DNA of 15,309 nt, taken from NCBI GenBank assembly GCA_964388035.1, contig CAYLZE010000116.1, positions 1 to 15,309 of the forward strand, in the 5' to 3' direction. Shown in pieces: positions 1 to 7,921 of the stretch; positions within the stretch are counted from its first letter, which is position 1; every line of letters begins with the position of its first letter. Position numbers and translations under genes: made by a program. Origin of the DNA: an uncultured archaeon (lineage in GTDB: Archaea; Asgardarchaeota; Lokiarchaeia; Sigyniarchaeales; SOKP01). A model generated the notes under the pieces. The model saw only the letters and a list, made by a program, of their open reading frames with translations. It was not told where the DNA came from and did not search any database.

Positions 1-1
1 T

Positions 2-76
2 AAAATCACTCCTATTGAAGAAGCTCTCCAAAAAACCGTTGATTGGTATAAAGAATATTTACAAAAAAAGAATTAA
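2..76 (+). CDS. C-terminal fragment of an NAD-dependent epimerase/dehydratase (extended SDR), truncated by the window edge
   Basis: Frame 2 reads KITPIEEALQKTVDWYKEYLQKKN* with TAA at 74-76. The TPxEExLxxTVxWY pattern is the typical C-terminal helix of extended SDRs (epimerase, DFR/HpnA and 3beta-HSD-like). Confidence 0.7.
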   Translation, partial: KITPIEEALQKTVDWYKEYLQKKN

Positions 77-163: not shown

Positions 164-643
164 ATGTTAGAAGAAAAATTATCAAGCCAAATAATAGATA
201 TAAATACCTACAAGACGGATATCACGAGAAGATACACGACTTTTCTTTCCCAATATCCGGAGATTTTTTCAGATTTGTGTGATGGTTCCGTGTTCGATTT
301 CTGCATCTATGATTCTCTCGGATCTTACGAGGATCATGTTCCCGTGGATGCATTTAACGTGCTACGCAATGGAAATGGAATTGAAATTAAACCGGGAAAA
401 GCAGAGGACTCCGACTTGGAATTAGCACTTTCGGTGGATGCCATTGAAAAATTAATCCAAACGAACACGAAGGAAGAATATGCTCAACTCCTCGGAAACT
501 TTTATAATGAACCCGATGAGGAAAAGGGCTGGATTGATTTTGCTTTGTACAAAAGAACCCAGCTCTTGATTGAAATGGGGTATGGCAGATTCGCAAAAAC
601 TGCCGGGATACTTGAAGATGAAGACAACGTGTATTCCATGTAA
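164..643 (+). CDS. Hypothetical protein, SCP2 (sterol carrier protein 2)-like fold; paralog of 2221..2628
   Basis: 159 aa ORF. GIEIKPGKAEDSDLELALSVDAIEKLIQ resembles the SCP2 strand-G-x-D-strand-helix core. It shares EI..DLxL...A..LIQ...EY...NxP...LLxxMGY with ORF 2221..2628. The fold call is inference. Confidence 0.6.
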   Translation: MLEEKLSSQIIDINTYKTDITRRYTTFLSQYPEIFSDLCDGSVFDFCIYDSLGSYEDHVPVDAFNVLRNGNGIEIKPGKAEDSDLELALSVDAIEKLIQTNTKEEYAQLLGNFYNEPDEEKGWIDFALYKRTQLLIEMGYGRFAKTAGILEDEDNVYSM

Positions 644-706: not shown

Positions 707-2200
707 ATGTCAAAATCACAAGAATTAGAAATTTTTAATAAATATACTGGCGAAGTAATTAAATCCATACCAGCAGACACGATACAGACTGTCCGGGATA
801 AGATTATAAAGGTCCATAAAAACCAAGAACAGCTAAAAAAGATGGATTTCTTCGAACGCGCTAAGCTTCTCTCTCAATTTGCCACCAAATTGCGATTCAA
901 TAAGAACAAGCTAAAGGAGCTAATAGTGGCAGAGGGCGGGCTTCCGATCAAGTATAGCGAATGGGAGTTGTCCATAGTCACTCAAGGATTCAAATTTTGT
1001 GATTGGTATTGGCCCTTCATTGAGGAAAAGCGCTTGACCAGTATCGAAGGAGAGCAGCTAGCAAGCATTAGACGTCTTCCTCACGGATTAGCAGCTTGCA
1101 TTTCTCCTCGCAATACTCCAATAAGCCTCCCCCTTTATCAATTAGGAGCAAATTACCTAGTAGGGAACAGTGCCATCGTCAAACCATCTACCGCTTGCCC
1201 TTTAACAATGTTAGAAGCTTATTCCATGATGGAAGAGATGGAATTACCCGGACTTGATGCCTTAGATATTGTAATTGCGCCTGGAGAATGGGCTGTGGAT
1301 GAATTTCTTAGTTCACCTTTAGTTAAAACTTTAATGACCATTACCGCATCCCACACGGCAAAAGACATCATTGTTCGATACGCTAAAATTTTAAAAAAGA
1401 ATACCGACAAGTCAATGGGTGTCACCATGTATACCACTCCCTTCAAACAATTCTTTTTTGAATGTGCTGGGAATGATGCCGGTATCGTGATGGATGACGT
1501 GAATTTAGAGCAAGTAGCAAAATGGAACGTGATGGCTTCCTATACCAACTCGGGCCAACAATGCTTCTCGATGAAAAGAATCATCGTGCACAAGGATATC
1601 TATGATGAGTATATTGAGTTATTGATCAAGGAAATGGAGAAATTGAAATACGGAGATCCGACCGATCCTGACGTCGATATCGGTCCCTTGGGAAGTAGAA
1701 AAATCTTGATGATGATGGAAGTAATGGTAGAAGACGCTAAAAAGTATGGGGTCAAAATTTATACGGGAGCGGAAAAGGTTGACACGGGCAAGGATTATGG
1801 CTTATTTTACAAGCCCACTCTGGTTGAGATTAAACCAGAATTATGTTTCGATTTAACTAAAGCACCTTTCTTGTGGCGTGAAGAAGCCTTTGGTCCCGTT
1901 CGCTCCGTGACAAAAGCTAATGATATGAAAGATGCAATAAGATTAGCTAACGCGAGCAATTACGGCATGCGGGCGGTAGTGTATACCACTAATTTGGAAA
2001 ATATTGAAATCTTTAAAAATGAGCTGGAAGCTGCAAACATTTATATCAATGCACGCCCCATGTTGGTCGATATCACCGTGTCCTTGGGGGGAATCAAAGA
2101 TTCTGCATATCCTCCAGGATGTAAATATTATCCCCAAGAATTAACGTACGGTAAATATATTTACGATGGAACCCCCATAAACTTGGATAAAATTAAATAA
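707..2200 (+). CDS. Aldehyde dehydrogenase family protein, divergent; catalytic Cys retained
   Basis: Motifs: ISPRNTP (PWNxP equivalent), GNSAIVKPS, ECAGND (ELGGK equivalent, Glu252), NSGQQC (Cys286, TGC at 1562-1564), EEAFGPV, ANASNYGM, LGGIKDS. Confidence 0.92.
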   Translation: MSKSQELEIFNKYTGEVIKSIPADTIQTVRDKIIKVHKNQEQLKKMDFFERAKLLSQFATKLRFNKNKLKELIVAEGGLPIKYSEWELSIVTQGFKFCDWYWPFIEEKRLTSIEGEQLASIRRLPHGLAACISPRNTPISLPLYQLGANYLVGNSAIVKPSTACPLTMLEAYSMMEEMELPGLDALDIVIAPGEWAVDEFLSSPLVKTLMTITASHTAKDIIVRYAKILKKNTDKSMGVTMYTTPFKQFFFECAGNDAGIVMDDVNLEQVAKWNVMASYTNSGQQCFSMKRIIVHKDIYDEYIELLIKEMEKLKYGDPTDPDVDIGPLGSRKILMMMEVMVEDAKKYGVKIYTGAEKVDTGKDYGLFYKPTLVEIKPELCFDLTKAPFLWREEAFGPVRSVTKANDMKDAIRLANASNYGMRAVVYTTNLENIEIFKNELEAANIYINARPMLVDITVSLGGIKDSAYPPGCKYYPQELTYGKYIYDGTPINLDKIK

Positions 2201-2220: not shown

Positions 2221-2628
2221 ATGGACTCCGGGGAACTATTCAACGAATTAGCTTCTTATTTTCCAAAGACTTCAGATTTAATGAGGCATCTTCAAATAAA
2301 CGCTTGTTGGGAATATGTTATTACTGAGCACTCAACAAATGATATGGAAATCAAATTGAACTATTTTTTATATAAAAAAGACGAAAATAGGTTAGAAATT
2401 TCCTTGAAAAGTCCCGGAATTAAGCCAGATTTAACTTTATATTTCACGGAAAAAGCCCTTTTAAATCTAATCCAAGGCCATCCGAGTGCGGATGAGTATT
2501 ATGCTCGCTATCGCGAGGTAATGAACCATCCAAAACCAGAGATTGAGGTAGACAATAAGGTAAATAAACCTCGACTCTTGCTTTGGAAAATGGGGTATAA
2601 AAATTGGCAAAAGGACTTTAAATTCTGA
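2221..2628 (+). CDS. Hypothetical protein, SCP2-like; paralog of 164..643
   Basis: 135 aa ORF starting 20 bp after ALDH1. RLEISLKSPGIKPDLTLYFTEKALLNLIQ...EYY...NHP...LLWKMGY aligns by eye with the C-terminal two-thirds of ORF 164..643. Confidence 0.6.
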   Translation: MDSGELFNELASYFPKTSDLMRHLQINACWEYVITEHSTNDMEIKLNYFLYKKDENRLEISLKSPGIKPDLTLYFTEKALLNLIQGHPSADEYYARYREVMNHPKPEIEVDNKVNKPRLLLWKMGYKNWQKDFKF

Positions 2629-2703
2629 AAATAGTGCCAAGATTAGGATCAAGCATTAAAATACAATTTCAAAAATAGATAAAAATACTTTAATCGTGAT
2701 TTC

Positions 2704-4224
2704 ATGAATTTAGATGTTATTAATAAATATAATGGAGAGCTTGTAGGCTCGATAGAAGCAGATAATGAAGAAACAGTCAATGAAAAAATAGAACGGACTG
2801 CTAAATGGGAATATCGATTGTTAAATACCTCCTTGGAAGAAAGAATAGATGTTATTAAAAAGATAGCCTCAGATCTCATCGATTACAAGGAAAAGATAAA
2901 GAATCTAATCGTTGCGGAGGGGGGATTGCCAATAAAATATGCCGAATGGGAGTTTCAGATGATAGAAAAAGGATTTAAATACGTGGATTGGTTTACCAAA
3001 TTTATAGATGATAAGAGCCAGAAAGACCTTGAAAGCGGTAAAGTTTCCACGATCTATTATCAACCCAGAGGACTAACGATCGGAATTACTCCGAGAAACA
3101 CTCCCTTGAGCTTGCCCATGTATTTTTGGGGATCCAGCTTTTTAACGGGGAATCCTGCCATTATTAAACCATCCATAGCTTGTCCCTTAACCATGAAATT
3201 TTGCCTCGATAAGATAATTGAGAATAAGTTTACTTTTTCTGCAGCTTATGATATCGTGATTAGTCCCGGAGATTTCATGATAAAGCAATTTATTGAATCT
3301 GATCTCACAAAAAATCTCATCTGCGTCGGTTCTTCCCATACAGCGAAACAAATATTAATAGATTATGCGGATTTTTTGAAAAAAAGCATCCAAACCTATC
3401 AAGGCATGACCAGGATTAATAAACCCTTCAAGAATTTCGTATTCGAGTGTGCAGGAAACGATGCGGGAATAATCTTGCCCGGAGTGGACTTGGAAACGGT
3501 TGCAAAATGGAACATCATTGCTTCCTATACCAATTCGGGACAGCAAAATTTTTCCATGAAGAGAATCATTGTCCATCAGGATATTTACGATGAATATGTC
3601 GAGCTTTTAATAAGAGAAATTGAGAAGTTGAAAATGGGAGATCCTATGGATGAATCTACGGACATTGCTCCGTTGGGCTCACGTCGCATTTTAATGCTAA
3701 TGGATCTCATGGTGGGAGAGGCGCAAAAGCATAAAAATGTAAGAATATTATGTGGTGCTAAGAAGGTCGATACTGGAGAGGCATATGGTCTTTTCTATGA
3801 ACCCACTTTGGTTGAAATTCCTCGAGAAAATATCCTTGACTTTAATAAAGCCCCTTTCTTATGGCGAGAAGAGGCTTTTGGGCCGGTCAGAAGTATAACT
3901 AAAGCGAAGAGCGTGGAGGATGCAATCTTCCTAGCAAATCATTCAAATTACGGCATGAGGGCAGTGGTTTACTCTCCTCCAGAGTATATTCAGAGGTTTA
4001 CCAATGAATTGCAAGCTGGCAGTGTATATATTAATAGTGAGCCCATGCTAGCAACCATTAGCACCGCTCTCGGAGGATGGAAGGACTCCTCATGGCCAAG
4101 TGGCATTAAATATTATCCTTCGGAATGCGTTCGAACCAAAATTGTCTATAATGGTTCCGAAGATAATGAACGAGCACTATTCGGTTCCAATATAGAATCC
4201 AATCCAGCATCTGTGAAAAATTAA
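2704..4224 (+). CDS. Aldehyde dehydrogenase family protein lacking the catalytic Cys (probable pseudoenzyme subunit); paralog of 707..2200
   Basis: Motifs: ITPRNTP, GNPAIIKPS, CVGSS, ECAGND (Glu248) and EEAFGPV are present, but NSGQQN has Asn282 (AAT at 3547-3549) at the nucleophile position. Long blocks are identical to ALDH1 (LIVAEGGLPIKY, KAPFLWREEAFGPVRS). A GTGAT SD-like site precedes the ATG. Confidence 0.9.
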   Translation: MNLDVINKYNGELVGSIEADNEETVNEKIERTAKWEYRLLNTSLEERIDVIKKIASDLIDYKEKIKNLIVAEGGLPIKYAEWEFQMIEKGFKYVDWFTKFIDDKSQKDLESGKVSTIYYQPRGLTIGITPRNTPLSLPMYFWGSSFLTGNPAIIKPSIACPLTMKFCLDKIIENKFTFSAAYDIVISPGDFMIKQFIESDLTKNLICVGSSHTAKQILIDYADFLKKSIQTYQGMTRINKPFKNFVFECAGNDAGIILPGVDLETVAKWNIIASYTNSGQQNFSMKRIIVHQDIYDEYVELLIREIEKLKMGDPMDESTDIAPLGSRRILMLMDLMVGEAQKHKNVRILCGAKKVDTGEAYGLFYEPTLVEIPRENILDFNKAPFLWREEAFGPVRSITKAKSVEDAIFLANHSNYGMRAVVYSPPEYIQRFTNELQAGSVYINSEPMLATISTALGGWKDSSWPSGIKYYPSECVRTKIVYNGSEDNERALFGSNIESNPASVKN

Positions 4225-4348: not shown

Positions 4349-6100
4349 TTAATAATAATTAGGAGGAAGGAGTTCCATGGGGTCTACCACGACATCCACC
4401 AGATTAAATCCTCTAGAATTCATGGCATTTTTGATTGCCTCATCTAAATTACTCAATTTTTCCACGCGTATTCCATTTCCCCCATGAGCTTCGGTGAGTG
4501 TAGCAAAATCGGTATTTGGACGATCCGTATCATAATATCGTTTTTTATAGAGCATTGCTTGTCCAAACTTTACAAAACCTAAAGAAGCATTATTAATAAC
4601 CACGATAGTGCAATCTAAGTTTAATTTCTTGATGGTTTCAAATTCATTAATCCCACCATTCATCAAACCACCATCCCCCGTGAATAAAACTTTTTTAGAT
4701 TTGAATGCATCTTTATAAAGAGATTTTACAGCAATGCATGTCCCAATAAGTGCCCCCACGCCAAATCCCGTTGGGCCCACACCTCGAGCGGTTATGATAT
4801 TCCTGCCAATTGCTTTTACAGGAAAATACGGTCCTATCCATCGCGAGCTGGCACTCGCATCCGTGACCAAGTAATCATCCTTGGTAAAATTGTCCGAAAT
4901 GGCTTTTAAAACCCTTTGAGGCTTGATTGGTTCTGCAGATAACCAAGCTTGTTCATCGGATTTCCTATATTCAGCATGGTCTTGTTTTAATTTTTCCATG
5001 TTTTCCTTTCTTTCTTCAAGCAACCCGTGTTGATCAGATCCATCCGTGATCCCGTGCTTGGCGAGATCTTCTATTATTAGCTGTAATGCTGCCTTGGGGT
5101 CTCCAACTATCCCCCATGGATGATAATACAAGCCAATTTCGGCTGGATCGATATCAATCTGAATCATTTCCGTTTTCTGCGTGGGTATCTTGAAGTTTGC
5201 TGTATCATCTTCGGTTAGCCGATTGCCCACGACTATCAGCAAGTCGGCCCGTTGCCTTATGAATTTATGATTTGGCTTTTCCCCGAATAACCCGATCGTG
5301 CCAAAATAATGACTGTCCGGTTGAATCTCACGAGAAAGCATAATCCCTTTTCCCGAAATTGTGGAAAATGCGGGTACCATGAGCATTTTGCTTAACTGAT
5401 CAATTTCAGCGAAAGCTCCAGAAAGTACTGCACCTCCTCCTGAATAAATTGCGGGTTGTTTTGCCTTTCTTATGAGTTCGAGTGCAGTTTCTATTTCGTT
5501 TATAGCGGGAGCCGGGCGGCAACCATTAATAGAACATGCTCCCCCCGCTCGGGGAATAAATTCCTGTAATCTCAGCTCCGAGGATCGCACTACATCTTCC
5601 GCGATTACCAGCGCTGCAGGACCGGGTTTTCCATTTACTGCTTGTCGAATGGCAAATTTCATGAATCGTGGTAAATATTCGGTAGATAGCACCTTTCCGG
5701 TCCATTTTGTAATCGGCTGCATTACTTCTGCTACGGGAATATCATGTGGTATGTTTAAAAGCATTTCTTTTGACTTGATCACGCCAATGATAGCAAGAAC
5801 GGGAGATCCCGATCCTTTTGCTTCTGCTAAAGCTACGGGAAAATTCATGGCACCTGCAGCTCCTGCATCACACACGCCCAAATTTCCCGTTATTCTTGCA
5901 TATGCATCCGCTCCAAAGGCAGCACTTCGTTCATCATTAAATAAAACGTGTTCAATTCCCTCTGTTGCGAGTATTCCATCATAAAATCCCAGGGTGTGCC
6001 CATCAGGAATTCCAAACACGTGTTCCACGCCATGAGCTTTCAGCAGTTGCGCCATTCCAAATCCTGTTGTTACCACATCTTTTAAATTATTGGTTGTCAT
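4349..6100 (-). CDS. Thiamine diphosphate-dependent enzyme, acetolactate synthase large subunit-like superfamily
   Basis: Motifs: GVEHVFGIPDG, NDERSAAFGADAYAR (catalytic Glu), KPGPAALVI, central domain GGGA...IQIDIDPAEIG, and the ThDP/Mg motif GDGG...INN. DASASSRW and TARGVGPTGFG differ from canonical IlvB (DVGQHQMW, SGGLGTMGFG). No regulatory subunit is adjacent. Confidence 0.88.
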   Translation of the reverse strand: MTTNNLKDVVTTGFGMAQLLKAHGVEHVFGIPDGHTLGFYDGILATEGIEHVLFNDERSAAFGADAYARITGNLGVCDAGAAGAMNFPVALAEAKGSGSPVLAIIGVIKSKEMLLNIPHDIPVAEVMQPITKWTGKVLSTEYLPRFMKFAIRQAVNGKPGPAALVIAEDVVRSSELRLQEFIPRAGGACSINGCRPAPAINEIETALELIRKAKQPAIYSGGGAVLSGAFAEIDQLSKMLMVPAFSTISGKGIMLSREIQPDSHYFGTIGLFGEKPNHKFIRQRADLLIVVGNRLTEDDTANFKIPTQKTEMIQIDIDPAEIGLYYHPWGIVGDPKAALQLIIEDLAKHGITDGSDQHGLLEERKENMEKLKQDHAEYRKSDEQAWLSAEPIKPQRVLKAISDNFTKDDYLVTDASASSRWIGPYFPVKAIGRNIITARGVGPTGFGVGALIGTCIAVKSLYKDAFKSKKVLFTGDGGLMNGGINEFETIKKLNLDCTIVVINNASLGFVKFGQAMLYKKRYYDTDRPNTDFATLTEAHGGNGIRVEKLSNLDEAIKNAMNSRGFNLVDVVVDPMELLPPNYY

Positions 6101-6187
6101 ATTTAAACAAGACTGTAATTATCCGTTACTTTTGTGATTTTTTCAAAAAAATAAAAAACTTATGATAATAAAATTAAGCTGAAAATA

Positions 6188-7894
6188 TTACGCGAATCGT
6201 ATTAACGACTCTAAAAATTCATCAGGTTCTTGATATCCTAAAAGATTTAATATGGTTGCGGCTATATTTCCCAGTTTAGGTTCTTGAAGGTCATTCTTAA
6301 TTTTATATTCGTTTTGATACTGGCTATCTACAATCGCGAACATTACCGGATTACAAGTATGAGAGGTGATATATTTTCCCTTCATTTCTTCGAGATTTCC
6401 ATGATCTGCCGTGATGAGCGTGATGCCTTGCTTCTTAGACACCTCTTTTACCACTTCGCCCACGCATTCATCGACAGTTTCAGTCGCAATCACTGCTGCA
6501 TTAAAGTCACCCGTATGACCCACCATATCACCATTAGTGAAGTTAACGCGCAAGAATTTGTATTGTTCCGAGTCAATGGCGCTTTTTAGTTCATCTAAAA
6601 TTTCCTTCGCTTTCATTTTTGGGTTATCTCTTATCAGTTCGGACTTAAAAGATTTAATTTCGCAATATTTTTCCTTGTATTGGGAGTCATAATAAACTAT
6701 TTCTTGCCCGTTTTTATTGACAGTCTTAGAGCTTGTCCTGAAATCCCGATTACCTTCAAAAAAGTATGAAACGTGTCCGAACTTGAAAGTTTCCGAAATT
6801 GCAAACATCGGCACGTTTTCAGCGCTTAAATAATCCACGATGGTTGACTTAATAATTGGAGGCTCTAAAAAGTATTTGTTTGGAATTTTCGCTTCCTCAT
6901 CATACTCAACTAGCCCATAATATTGTACGGGGGGATTGCATTTTTTGGTGAATACTTTAAAATCTTTCTCATCAAATGCTCTCGAGATCTGAATGGCTCG
7001 GTCCCCCCGAAAATTAAAATTGATCACTCCGTCGCCCTTCTCCATTTTTCCGATAGGGTTGCCCTTCTCATCAGTGATTACGAAGGATGATAAATATTGA
7101 TCAGAAATATCCGGTTGATTTTCTCTGGCTTTCTTGATTGCTTGTTCTGCAGAAGAAAAATAGCCGGGATAATTGTCTTCTTGCTCGGGTATTCCACAAA
7201 CGTGAGCTTCCCAGCCCCTTCTAACAACATCCCAATCAGATTCATATCTATCCATCGTAACGTGCATGCGCCCGCCTCCCGAAGCAATCTTGTAATTATA
7301 TCCCTTACTTTTATTGATTTCGCCTAATTTTTTTTCCAATTGACCTACATACTCCAAGGAAGACTGAGGAGGAACGTCTCTCCCATCCAACAGGACATGG
7401 ACTCTAACTTCCGGGAGATCGGAAGAAACTGCTCCATCCAATAATCCAAAAAGATGGGTTATATGGCTATGGACATATCCATCCGATAATAATCCTAAGA
7501 GGTGGAGTTTCTTGTTCTCTTTTTTAAGAGAGGAGGTTAATTCTTTCCATTTTTGGCTTTTAAAAAGTGTTTTACTTTGAATTGCTTCTTTTGACAATAG
7601 AGCTCTTTCTTTTATTAGAGTACCGGCACCAAAAGCGTTATGTCCGACTTCTGAGTTGCCCATTTCTTCGTCGGTTGGAAGTCCAACAGCCGTTCCGTGG
7701 GCTTTTAACTTAATATATAATCCTTTTTTGGGACACTGCTCGATTACCTTGTCGAGAAAGGGTTTTTTAGCCGTATAAAAAGCATTTGCATCCGTTTCAT
7801 CTCGAAGTCCAATTCCATCCATTATCACAAAAACCAAAGGTCCTTTTCTTCCTTTAAAGGTTTTTAGTGGTTCTAATTTAAATTTTTGTGTCAT
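6188..7894 (-). CDS. gpmI: 2,3-bisphosphoglycerate-independent phosphoglycerate mutase
   Basis: Motifs: IMDGIG, AHGTAVGLP...MGNSEVGH (phospho-Ser), LSDGYVHSH, LDGRDVPP, MDRYE, NFRGDRA, SETFKFGHVSYFF, NGDMVGHTG, TADHGNLE, SHTCNPV. The ATG at 7894 is preferred over the TTG at 7900. Confidence 0.96.
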   Translation of the reverse strand: MTQKFKLEPLKTFKGRKGPLVFVIMDGIGLRDETDANAFYTAKKPFLDKVIEQCPKKGLYIKLKAHGTAVGLPTDEEMGNSEVGHNAFGAGTLIKERALLSKEAIQSKTLFKSQKWKELTSSLKKENKKLHLLGLLSDGYVHSHITHLFGLLDGAVSSDLPEVRVHVLLDGRDVPPQSSLEYVGQLEKKLGEINKSKGYNYKIASGGGRMHVTMDRYESDWDVVRRGWEAHVCGIPEQEDNYPGYFSSAEQAIKKARENQPDISDQYLSSFVITDEKGNPIGKMEKGDGVINFNFRGDRAIQISRAFDEKDFKVFTKKCNPPVQYYGLVEYDEEAKIPNKYFLEPPIIKSTIVDYLSAENVPMFAISETFKFGHVSYFFEGNRDFRTSSKTVNKNGQEIVYYDSQYKEKYCEIKSFKSELIRDNPKMKAKEILDELKSAIDSEQYKFLRVNFTNGDMVGHTGDFNAAVIATETVDECVGEVVKEVSKKQGITLITADHGNLEEMKGKYITSHTCNPVMFAIVDSQYQNEYKIKNDLQEPKLGNIAATILNLLGYQEPDEFLESLIRFA

Positions 7895-7921
7895 GTTCAA
7901 TCCATTATTTTAATTATTATT

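Follow-up and report, generated by a model that had tools for sequence, protein, structure and literature searches.

An aldehyde dehydrogenase without its catalytic cysteine, best read as a lineage-restricted pseudoenzyme, beside a Cys-bearing paralogue in an Asgard archaeal operon

The analyses described here reveal that the second of two aldehyde dehydrogenase (ALDH) genes in an operon of an uncultured Asgard archaeon encodes a protein without the catalytic Cys residue. This protein, hereafter ALDH2*, does not form a Cys thiohemiacetal or thioester and is best read as an ALDH pseudoenzyme, being full-length, foldable as judged from its structure model, devoid of the catalytic residue, and apparently held by purifying selection after the loss. 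We consider it probable that ALDH2* is maintained and non-catalytic, and see about an even chance that it acts through the Cys-bearing ALDH1 encoded upstream; a selectively maintained pseudoenzyme serving as a non-catalytic partner beside ALDH1 is the best explanation overall, held with evenly balanced confidence. The window, that is, the whole stretch of 15,309 nucleotides analysed, is the entire contig C116; the genome measures 5.47 Mb, with a completeness of 96.7% and a contamination of 7.3%, and named homologues belong to Promethearchaeota/Lokiarchaeota and related Asgard groups.

Table 1 Features of the two-ALDH operon in the window
Feature	Position	Strand	Basis or remark
3' end of extended SDR (HpnA/3-beta-HSD-like), operon head	1..76	+	truncated by contig end; 5' part at end of contig C24
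ORF159, small accessory gene of type-1 cassette, probably SCP2-like	164..643	+	nearest named cluster SCP2, score 0.85, lead only
ALDH1, type-1 member, 497 aa, catalytic Cys286 (TGC 1562-1564)	707..2200	+	presumably the operon's active enzyme
ORF135, small accessory gene of type-1 cassette, SCP2-like lipid-carrier fold	2221..2628	+	structure model
ALDH2* (506 aa), type-2 member of Asgard-specific ALDH family with complete ALDH fold but no catalytic Cys	2704..4224	+	PF00171, model, clade placement
Codon 282 AAT (Asn), nucleophile position (human ALDH2 Cys302)	3547..3549	+	AGT (Ser) in three related lineages
Codon 158 ATA (Ile)	3175..3177	+	Leu in P0003, also Cys-less; Thr in each of the 118 listed relatives with Cys
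Glu248, general base (Glu268 equivalent), retained	3445..3447	+	alignment
Asn132, oxyanion-hole residue (Asn169 equivalent), retained	3097..3099	+	alignment

ALDH2* shares 54% identity with ALDH1 and matches PF00171 with 248 bits (cut-off 23, E 1.6e-73). Its model (pLDDT 84.9) is a complete ALDH of the three-domain fold, with 3pqa and 5exf as the best Foldseek matches (E 1.8e-33, TM 0.77-0.80). Residue 282 aligns with the catalytic Cys of the solved ALDHs 3pqa and 6j75; positions 3523-3564 encode the 14 residues given in the initial annotation, with the AAT codon of Asn282 inside, and its reading of Asn in the catalytic Cys position, opposite TGC in ALDH1, holds. No new Cys that might serve as a substitute was found near site 282 in ALDH2* of the window or in P0003, the only other full-length Cys-less protein. 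The statement that the protein is otherwise preserved is, however, slightly too strong: Glu248, Asn132, the NAD(P)-site residues Lys155, Glu390 and Phe392, and the active-site loop around residue 282 are kept in the Cys-less proteins, but Thr158, a Thr in all Cys-bearing relatives examined, is replaced by Ile in the window and by Leu in P0003, and further changes occur near the cofactor site (A209G/T, A192M, A250S, G322A) and at near-invariant sites (P177T, A192M, G322A, M332L). With the motif aligned by its conserved Lys and Pro, we take position 158 to correspond to Glu195 of human ALDH2. In the human enzyme, Glu195 binds the adenosine ribose and sets the NAD/NADP preference (PMC8160307). 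The enrichment of changes at the cofactor site (p 0.005-0.04) is a lead only, its site list having been compiled post hoc. Changes at clade-invariant sites number 18 and 15 in the two Cys-less proteins against 2-14 (mean about 7) in comparable Cys-bearing ones, an about twofold excess suggesting that the constraint on ALDH2* is partly relaxed or shifted.

The replacement is narrowly distributed and not a matter of chance. Of 119 further family proteins listed, 118 have Cys at the site, as do, among the matches listed, 37 of 38 ALDH2-type orthologues; the exception, P0003, has Ser (AGT), is 79% identical to the window protein, and is encoded in a locus (L081) with the same gene order and an intact ALDH1 upstream. 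The window protein and P0003 are sisters (SH-aLRT 95 in the quick tree used for clade placement, 99 bootstrap in a small tree), while their next relatives (P0002, P0121; same-genus genome G001) have Cys, with the SDR directly before ALDH2 and no ALDH1 at the locus. Searches for further Cys-less members with codons not starting with T returned, in a set of 400 Asgard genomes, no genome but this one and were empty for JGI metagenomes, and a search for THN codons returned nothing in GTDB genomes. Wherever they extend over the site, the shorter fragments, the cluster members and the 80 metagenome loci have Cys without exception. The Cys-less state appears, from these sequences, to mark one small clade. 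As for the check suggested in the initial annotation, whether Asn is fixed in a clade always standing beside a Cys-bearing copy, the pairing is seen in both loci with known context (the window and L081), but the fixation is not, the clade being mostly Ser and including a Ser-bearing strain about 98.5% identical to the window. The co-occurrence with ALDH1 is one evolutionary event, represented by two full-length genes and two short contigs, and carries no statistical weight.

The AAT codon is reproduced with zero differences by Logan contigs from two separate salt-marsh runs (X1 3413-3585, X2 3050-3597), which may come from the source campaign but are still separate samples and assemblies; X2 contig 22 (A>G at 3548), a short piece of a distant homologue, was excluded. 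In a 2025 marsh run (X12), the site is covered by contigs 11 and 13, about 98.5% and about 90% identical to the window, both with AGT (Ser). The Cys-less sequences are thus four within one clade, with Asn in the window and Ser in L081/P0003 and the two marsh strains, and close orthologues do not all have Cys. A sequencing or assembly artefact, with which the singleton status of the ALDH2 protein in its 90% cluster would be compatible, has a negligible chance, given the agreement of two runs and the intermediate AGT in relatives; the initial annotation was right in calling a single sequencing error unlikely. The three-base difference between TGC and AAT on which it relied is present but did not arise as one event, the lineage having evidently passed along the path TGY → AGT → AAT. 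Asn282 appears to be a within-species variant one transition away from Ser, which seems to be the usual residue of the Cys-less clade. With the site evolving at or below the gene-average rate (omega <=0.02), Ser in the ancestor of the window/P0003 pair has a posterior of 0.86-0.99, which weakens to 0.3-0.9 (Cys up to 0.66) under a freely variable site; if the site became freely variable on a short stem, there may have been two late, independent Cys losses.

The Cys-less clade is intact and under purifying selection across about 20% amino-acid divergence. The initial annotation argued for selection from the silent differences that separate ALDH1 from ALDH2, but the two types split long before the Cys loss, which invalidates this argument, and the evidence had to come from inside the Cys-less clade. 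There, ALDH2* of the window and of L081 give a pairwise omega of 0.040 (dN 0.12, dS about 3), next to 0.031-0.039 for the neighbouring TPP enzyme, iPGM and amidase and 0.019 for ALDH1 against its L081 orthologue, and a branch model of nine sequences gives 0.013-0.026 on the Cys-less branches versus a background of 0.021 (p=0.33), with omega=1 rejected (LRT 526); these omega values are approximate because dS is near saturation, and the stem/tip split is poorly determined. Near-identical strains differ by 6 silent changes and 1 replacement, the latter at the Ser/Asn site (p about 0.001-0.003 under neutrality), and X12 contig 13 shows 9 silent and 2 replacement changes in 36 codons (Fisher p 2e-6). 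No stop or frameshift was found in either full Cys-less gene or in the contigs compared. A dN/dS far below 1 after the Cys loss is thus found in pairwise, branch-model and unsaturated strain comparisons alike.

As to how the two genes came together, 103 of 161 genomes of the Loki class carry the family, 102 of these 103 in single copy (one split over two contigs), and only the present genome among the carriers has two copies. Type 1 (ORF159-ALDH1-ORF135) and type 2 (ALDH2 alone) stand mostly behind the same SDR. The 80 metagenome loci are likewise single-copy and Cys-bearing, and in them the small genes accompany type-1 and type-3 genes wherever the contig reaches, never type-2 genes; ORF159 and ORF135 are also absent from the three type-2 genomes tested. 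The sharing of the same SDR and the presence of both types within single genera (g11, g7, g2) point to repeated replacement. As the SDR of L081 is 77% identical to that of the type-2 sister, the simplest history would be that a type-1 cassette inserted between an SDR and an ALDH2 that were both native; an ancestral two-copy state with many losses is less parsimonious. A tandem duplication of one SCP2+ALDH unit was rejected, as ALDH1 and ALDH2 lie in clades that separated deep in the family and ALDH1 is the one that both small genes accompany. In the predicted course of events, the genus ancestor would have had an SDR directly followed by an active ALDH2, and one sub-lineage would have acquired ORF159-ALDH1-ORF135 between the two, rendering ALDH2 catalysis redundant; Cys would then have been replaced by Ser (AGT) and Thr158 by a hydrophobic residue, followed by a later drift from Ser to Asn in one population. 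Faster evolution of ORF135 in the Cys-less clade was not supported.

In the predicted working of the operon, the SDR would produce an aldehyde from a hydrophobic (fatty or isoprenoid) alcohol and ALDH1 would oxidize it with the help of SCP2-like carriers, while ALDH2*, presumably co-expressed, would be a non-catalytic subunit of a mixed ALDH1/ALDH2* oligomer that it stabilizes or tunes, perhaps with the aldehyde bound in the intact substrate pocket of ALDH2*. ALDHs are oligomers, and together with the weakly better conservation of the oligomerization segments this makes co-assembly with ALDH1 the likeliest role of ALDH2*. Relative to Cys-bearing pairs, conservation is slightly higher in the oligomerization hairpin and C-terminal region and slightly lower in the Rossmann domain, weak differences of 1-2 SD each; the same trend against the Cys-bearing sister counts against our explanation. 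The neighbouring genes, the sole basis here, suggest a hydrophobic alcohol or aldehyde as the substrate class. The SDR of L081 is closest to HpnA/SdmB-type extended SDRs (HpnA match E 8e-52, below cut-off), and the ORF135 model (pLDDT 96.3) has SCP2 and UbiJ-SCP2 as top matches (E 3.6e-5, TM 0.44-0.51); with ether-lipid neighbours and FAD-linked oxidase loci elsewhere in the family, a route from hydrophobic alcohol through aldehyde to acid may be envisaged. At L114:2573-8521, a type-2 SDR-ALDH2 pair directly follows GGGP-synthase-like (PcrB), UbiA-family and geranylgeranyl reductase genes, hinting at isoprenoid-lipid substrates. In L117:3874-8979, L090, L091, L098 and L106, a CCG (Fe-S) protein carries an ORF159-like domain as a C-terminal fusion, and the L117 fusion sits behind an FAD-linked oxidase that replaces the SDR; this family of ALDHs is thus supplied by another type of dehydrogenase encoded upstream. 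Beyond a non-catalytic partnership, we put forward, tentatively and as a rather doubtful extension, that after arrival of the cassette the resident ALDH2 became indispensable, without catalysing, as a subunit of a hetero-oligomer of active and dead ALDHs, matching with two genes the active-plus-dead architecture of ALDH16, in which case every step of the Cys loss would be sampled in nature as the Cys sister, the Ser clade and the Asn variant.

Other readings of ALDH2* have to be weighed against this partnership with ALDH1. The protein may be non-catalytic but independent of ALDH1, continuing an older type-2 binding role, beyond the reach of ALDH1, toward the SDR or another partner, or as a free aldehyde/lipid sink or sensor. 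The selection after the Cys loss is equally compatible with such a role, and ALDH2 lies directly behind the SDR in type-2 loci (gaps 8-38 bp), with helix G and the insertion remaining type-2 in character without convergence on ALDH1. We nevertheless regard it as unlikely, because most genomes manage without any ALDH2 and SDR similarity tracks the host lineage, not the ALDH type (the type-1 SDR of L116 is 75% identical to the type-2 SDR of L113), which argues that the SDRs work with either ALDH. A predicted complex of the L081 Cys-less ALDH2 with its SDR scored 0.00, gave no answer, and weighs neither way.

Alternatively, Ser282 could be a working nucleophile, for cofactor-free ester/thioester hydrolysis or slow oxidation, with the Asn allele a recent null in one population. 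AGT-encoded Ser in three lineages spanning the clade, with Asn in the focal population only, would fit this and to that extent speaks against the non-catalytic partnership, as would the retention of the general base and oxyanion hole alongside altered cofactor-site residues (T158I/L, A209G/T, A250S, A192M, G322A), a pattern to be expected of a hydrolase working without cofactor. However, the corresponding Cys302Ser exchange in human ALDH2 costs more than 99% of both activities, the remainder being about 0.3% for the dehydrogenase and 0.4% for the esterase (PMC2740413), and by analogy neither Ser282 nor Asn282 would be expected to catalyse; the gene-wide dN of 0.12 keeps most residues, so that retention of Ser is uninformative, and Asn was found in two separate samples, making Ser chemistry in our view quite unlikely. 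It is also conceivable that a redundant gene is in slow decay, having lost Cys late and independently in each lineage, its low omega stemming from an earlier active state. The preponderance of Cys among the listed orthologues, the excess of changes at invariant sites, and the longer protein branches of ALDH2* (0.18, 0.15) than of ALDH1 in the same genomes (0.056, 0.057) are in line with decay, but it is unlikely, with a slim chance at best, and largely refuted by the silent-dominated differences (6:1 and 9:2) among lineages already sharing the non-Cys state; the intact reading frames, a rate equal to that of the neighbouring enzymes, and the same AGT codon in three lineages likewise oppose it.

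ALDH2* as a non-catalytic partner is worth comparing with known Cys-less ALDH pseudoenzymes, precedents for which exist in ALDH16A1, as the initial annotation stated, and in the second AldDH of GRM1 microcompartments. GRM1 loci contain two ALDHs, in one of which Cys is replaced by Ser or Pro and for which a scaffold or regulator role was proposed (Axen et al. 2014, PMC4207490). The present locus similarly pairs two ALDHs, one of them Cys-replaced, but, unlike GRM1, which occurs mainly in Firmicutes, it is an SDR/SCP2 operon of archaea whose ALDHs form a family apart and whose Cys-less copy arose independently and within narrow limits; neither the genes called in L081 nor those scanned in the window include a microcompartment shell or glycyl-radical gene. 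Human ALDH16A1 has an ALDH fold without the catalytic Cys that is retained by selection, with a proposed binding role (PMC10650815, PMC8160307), and in this retention ALDH2* resembles it. Whereas ALDH16A1 has lost the whole triad in mammals and bears an additional Rossmann domain at its C-terminus, ALDH2* consists of one 506-residue ALDH with a single Aldedh stretch, keeping Glu and Asn and having lost only Cys and some cofactor contacts. In domain layout and catalytic register, ALDH2* is like the archaeal non-phosphorylating ALDHs, namely Methanocaldococcus lactaldehyde dehydrogenase (3pqa, NF040648) and Pyrobaculum NADP-ALDH (4h73, 5exf), with TM about 0.78; these, in contrast, are active Cys enzymes and share only 23-26% identity with it. 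The NCBIfam ALDH equivalogs, including NF040648, score at best 246 (ALDH1) and 206 (ALDH2), far below the cut-off of 650, and with such identities and scores the substrate is not transferable to ALDH2.

A literature search found no paper on this Asgard ALDH family or on Asgard ALDH pseudoenzymes, and what is new here is one more dead enzyme of an established kind, restricted to a single lineage and belonging to neither the GRM1 nor the ALDH16 family. Dead ALDHs as such are no novelty, but what they do is mostly guesswork, and they arose long ago. The reach of the present case is limited to one small clade of marsh archaea with an uncultured host, but it offers an active sister (80% identical), both the Ser and the Asn form, and the active partner, four proteins with which the retention of a dead paralogue can be addressed; nor does the lack of Cys in an Asgard ALDH have to mean an error or a pseudogene.

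Several features of the locus and the family are recorded here in their own right. The operon SDR is split between window 1-76 and G000:C24:52682-52939, two contig ends, and C24 and C116 are therefore probably adjacent. A sigma-70 promoter/terminator scan stayed at chance level, the sigma-70 model being ill-suited to archaea. After ALDH2, genes for a divergent acetolactate-synthase-like TPP enzyme and iPGM lie on the opposite strand (window 4349-7900); both follow ALDH2 in the two Cys-less loci and are not at this position in the Cys-bearing sister loci. The Cys-bearing sister genes start with TTG behind a clear AGGTGA ribosome-binding site (L082:7985-8003, L118:6985-7003), and both Cys-less genes with ATG without AGGTGA (window 2690-2706). 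Throughout the family, Cys-bearing members included, Arg replaces the Trp before the oxyanion Asn, the FTGS motif is absent, ECAG follows the general base, and roughly 15 residues are inserted before it; related clusters at 50% identity retain part of this non-canonical motif pattern. P0048 carries a 17-residue tandem repeat right after the catalytic Cys, possibly an assembly artefact, and P0153, among the profile matches, is 899 residues long and has two ALDH catalytic motifs, each of which includes Cys.
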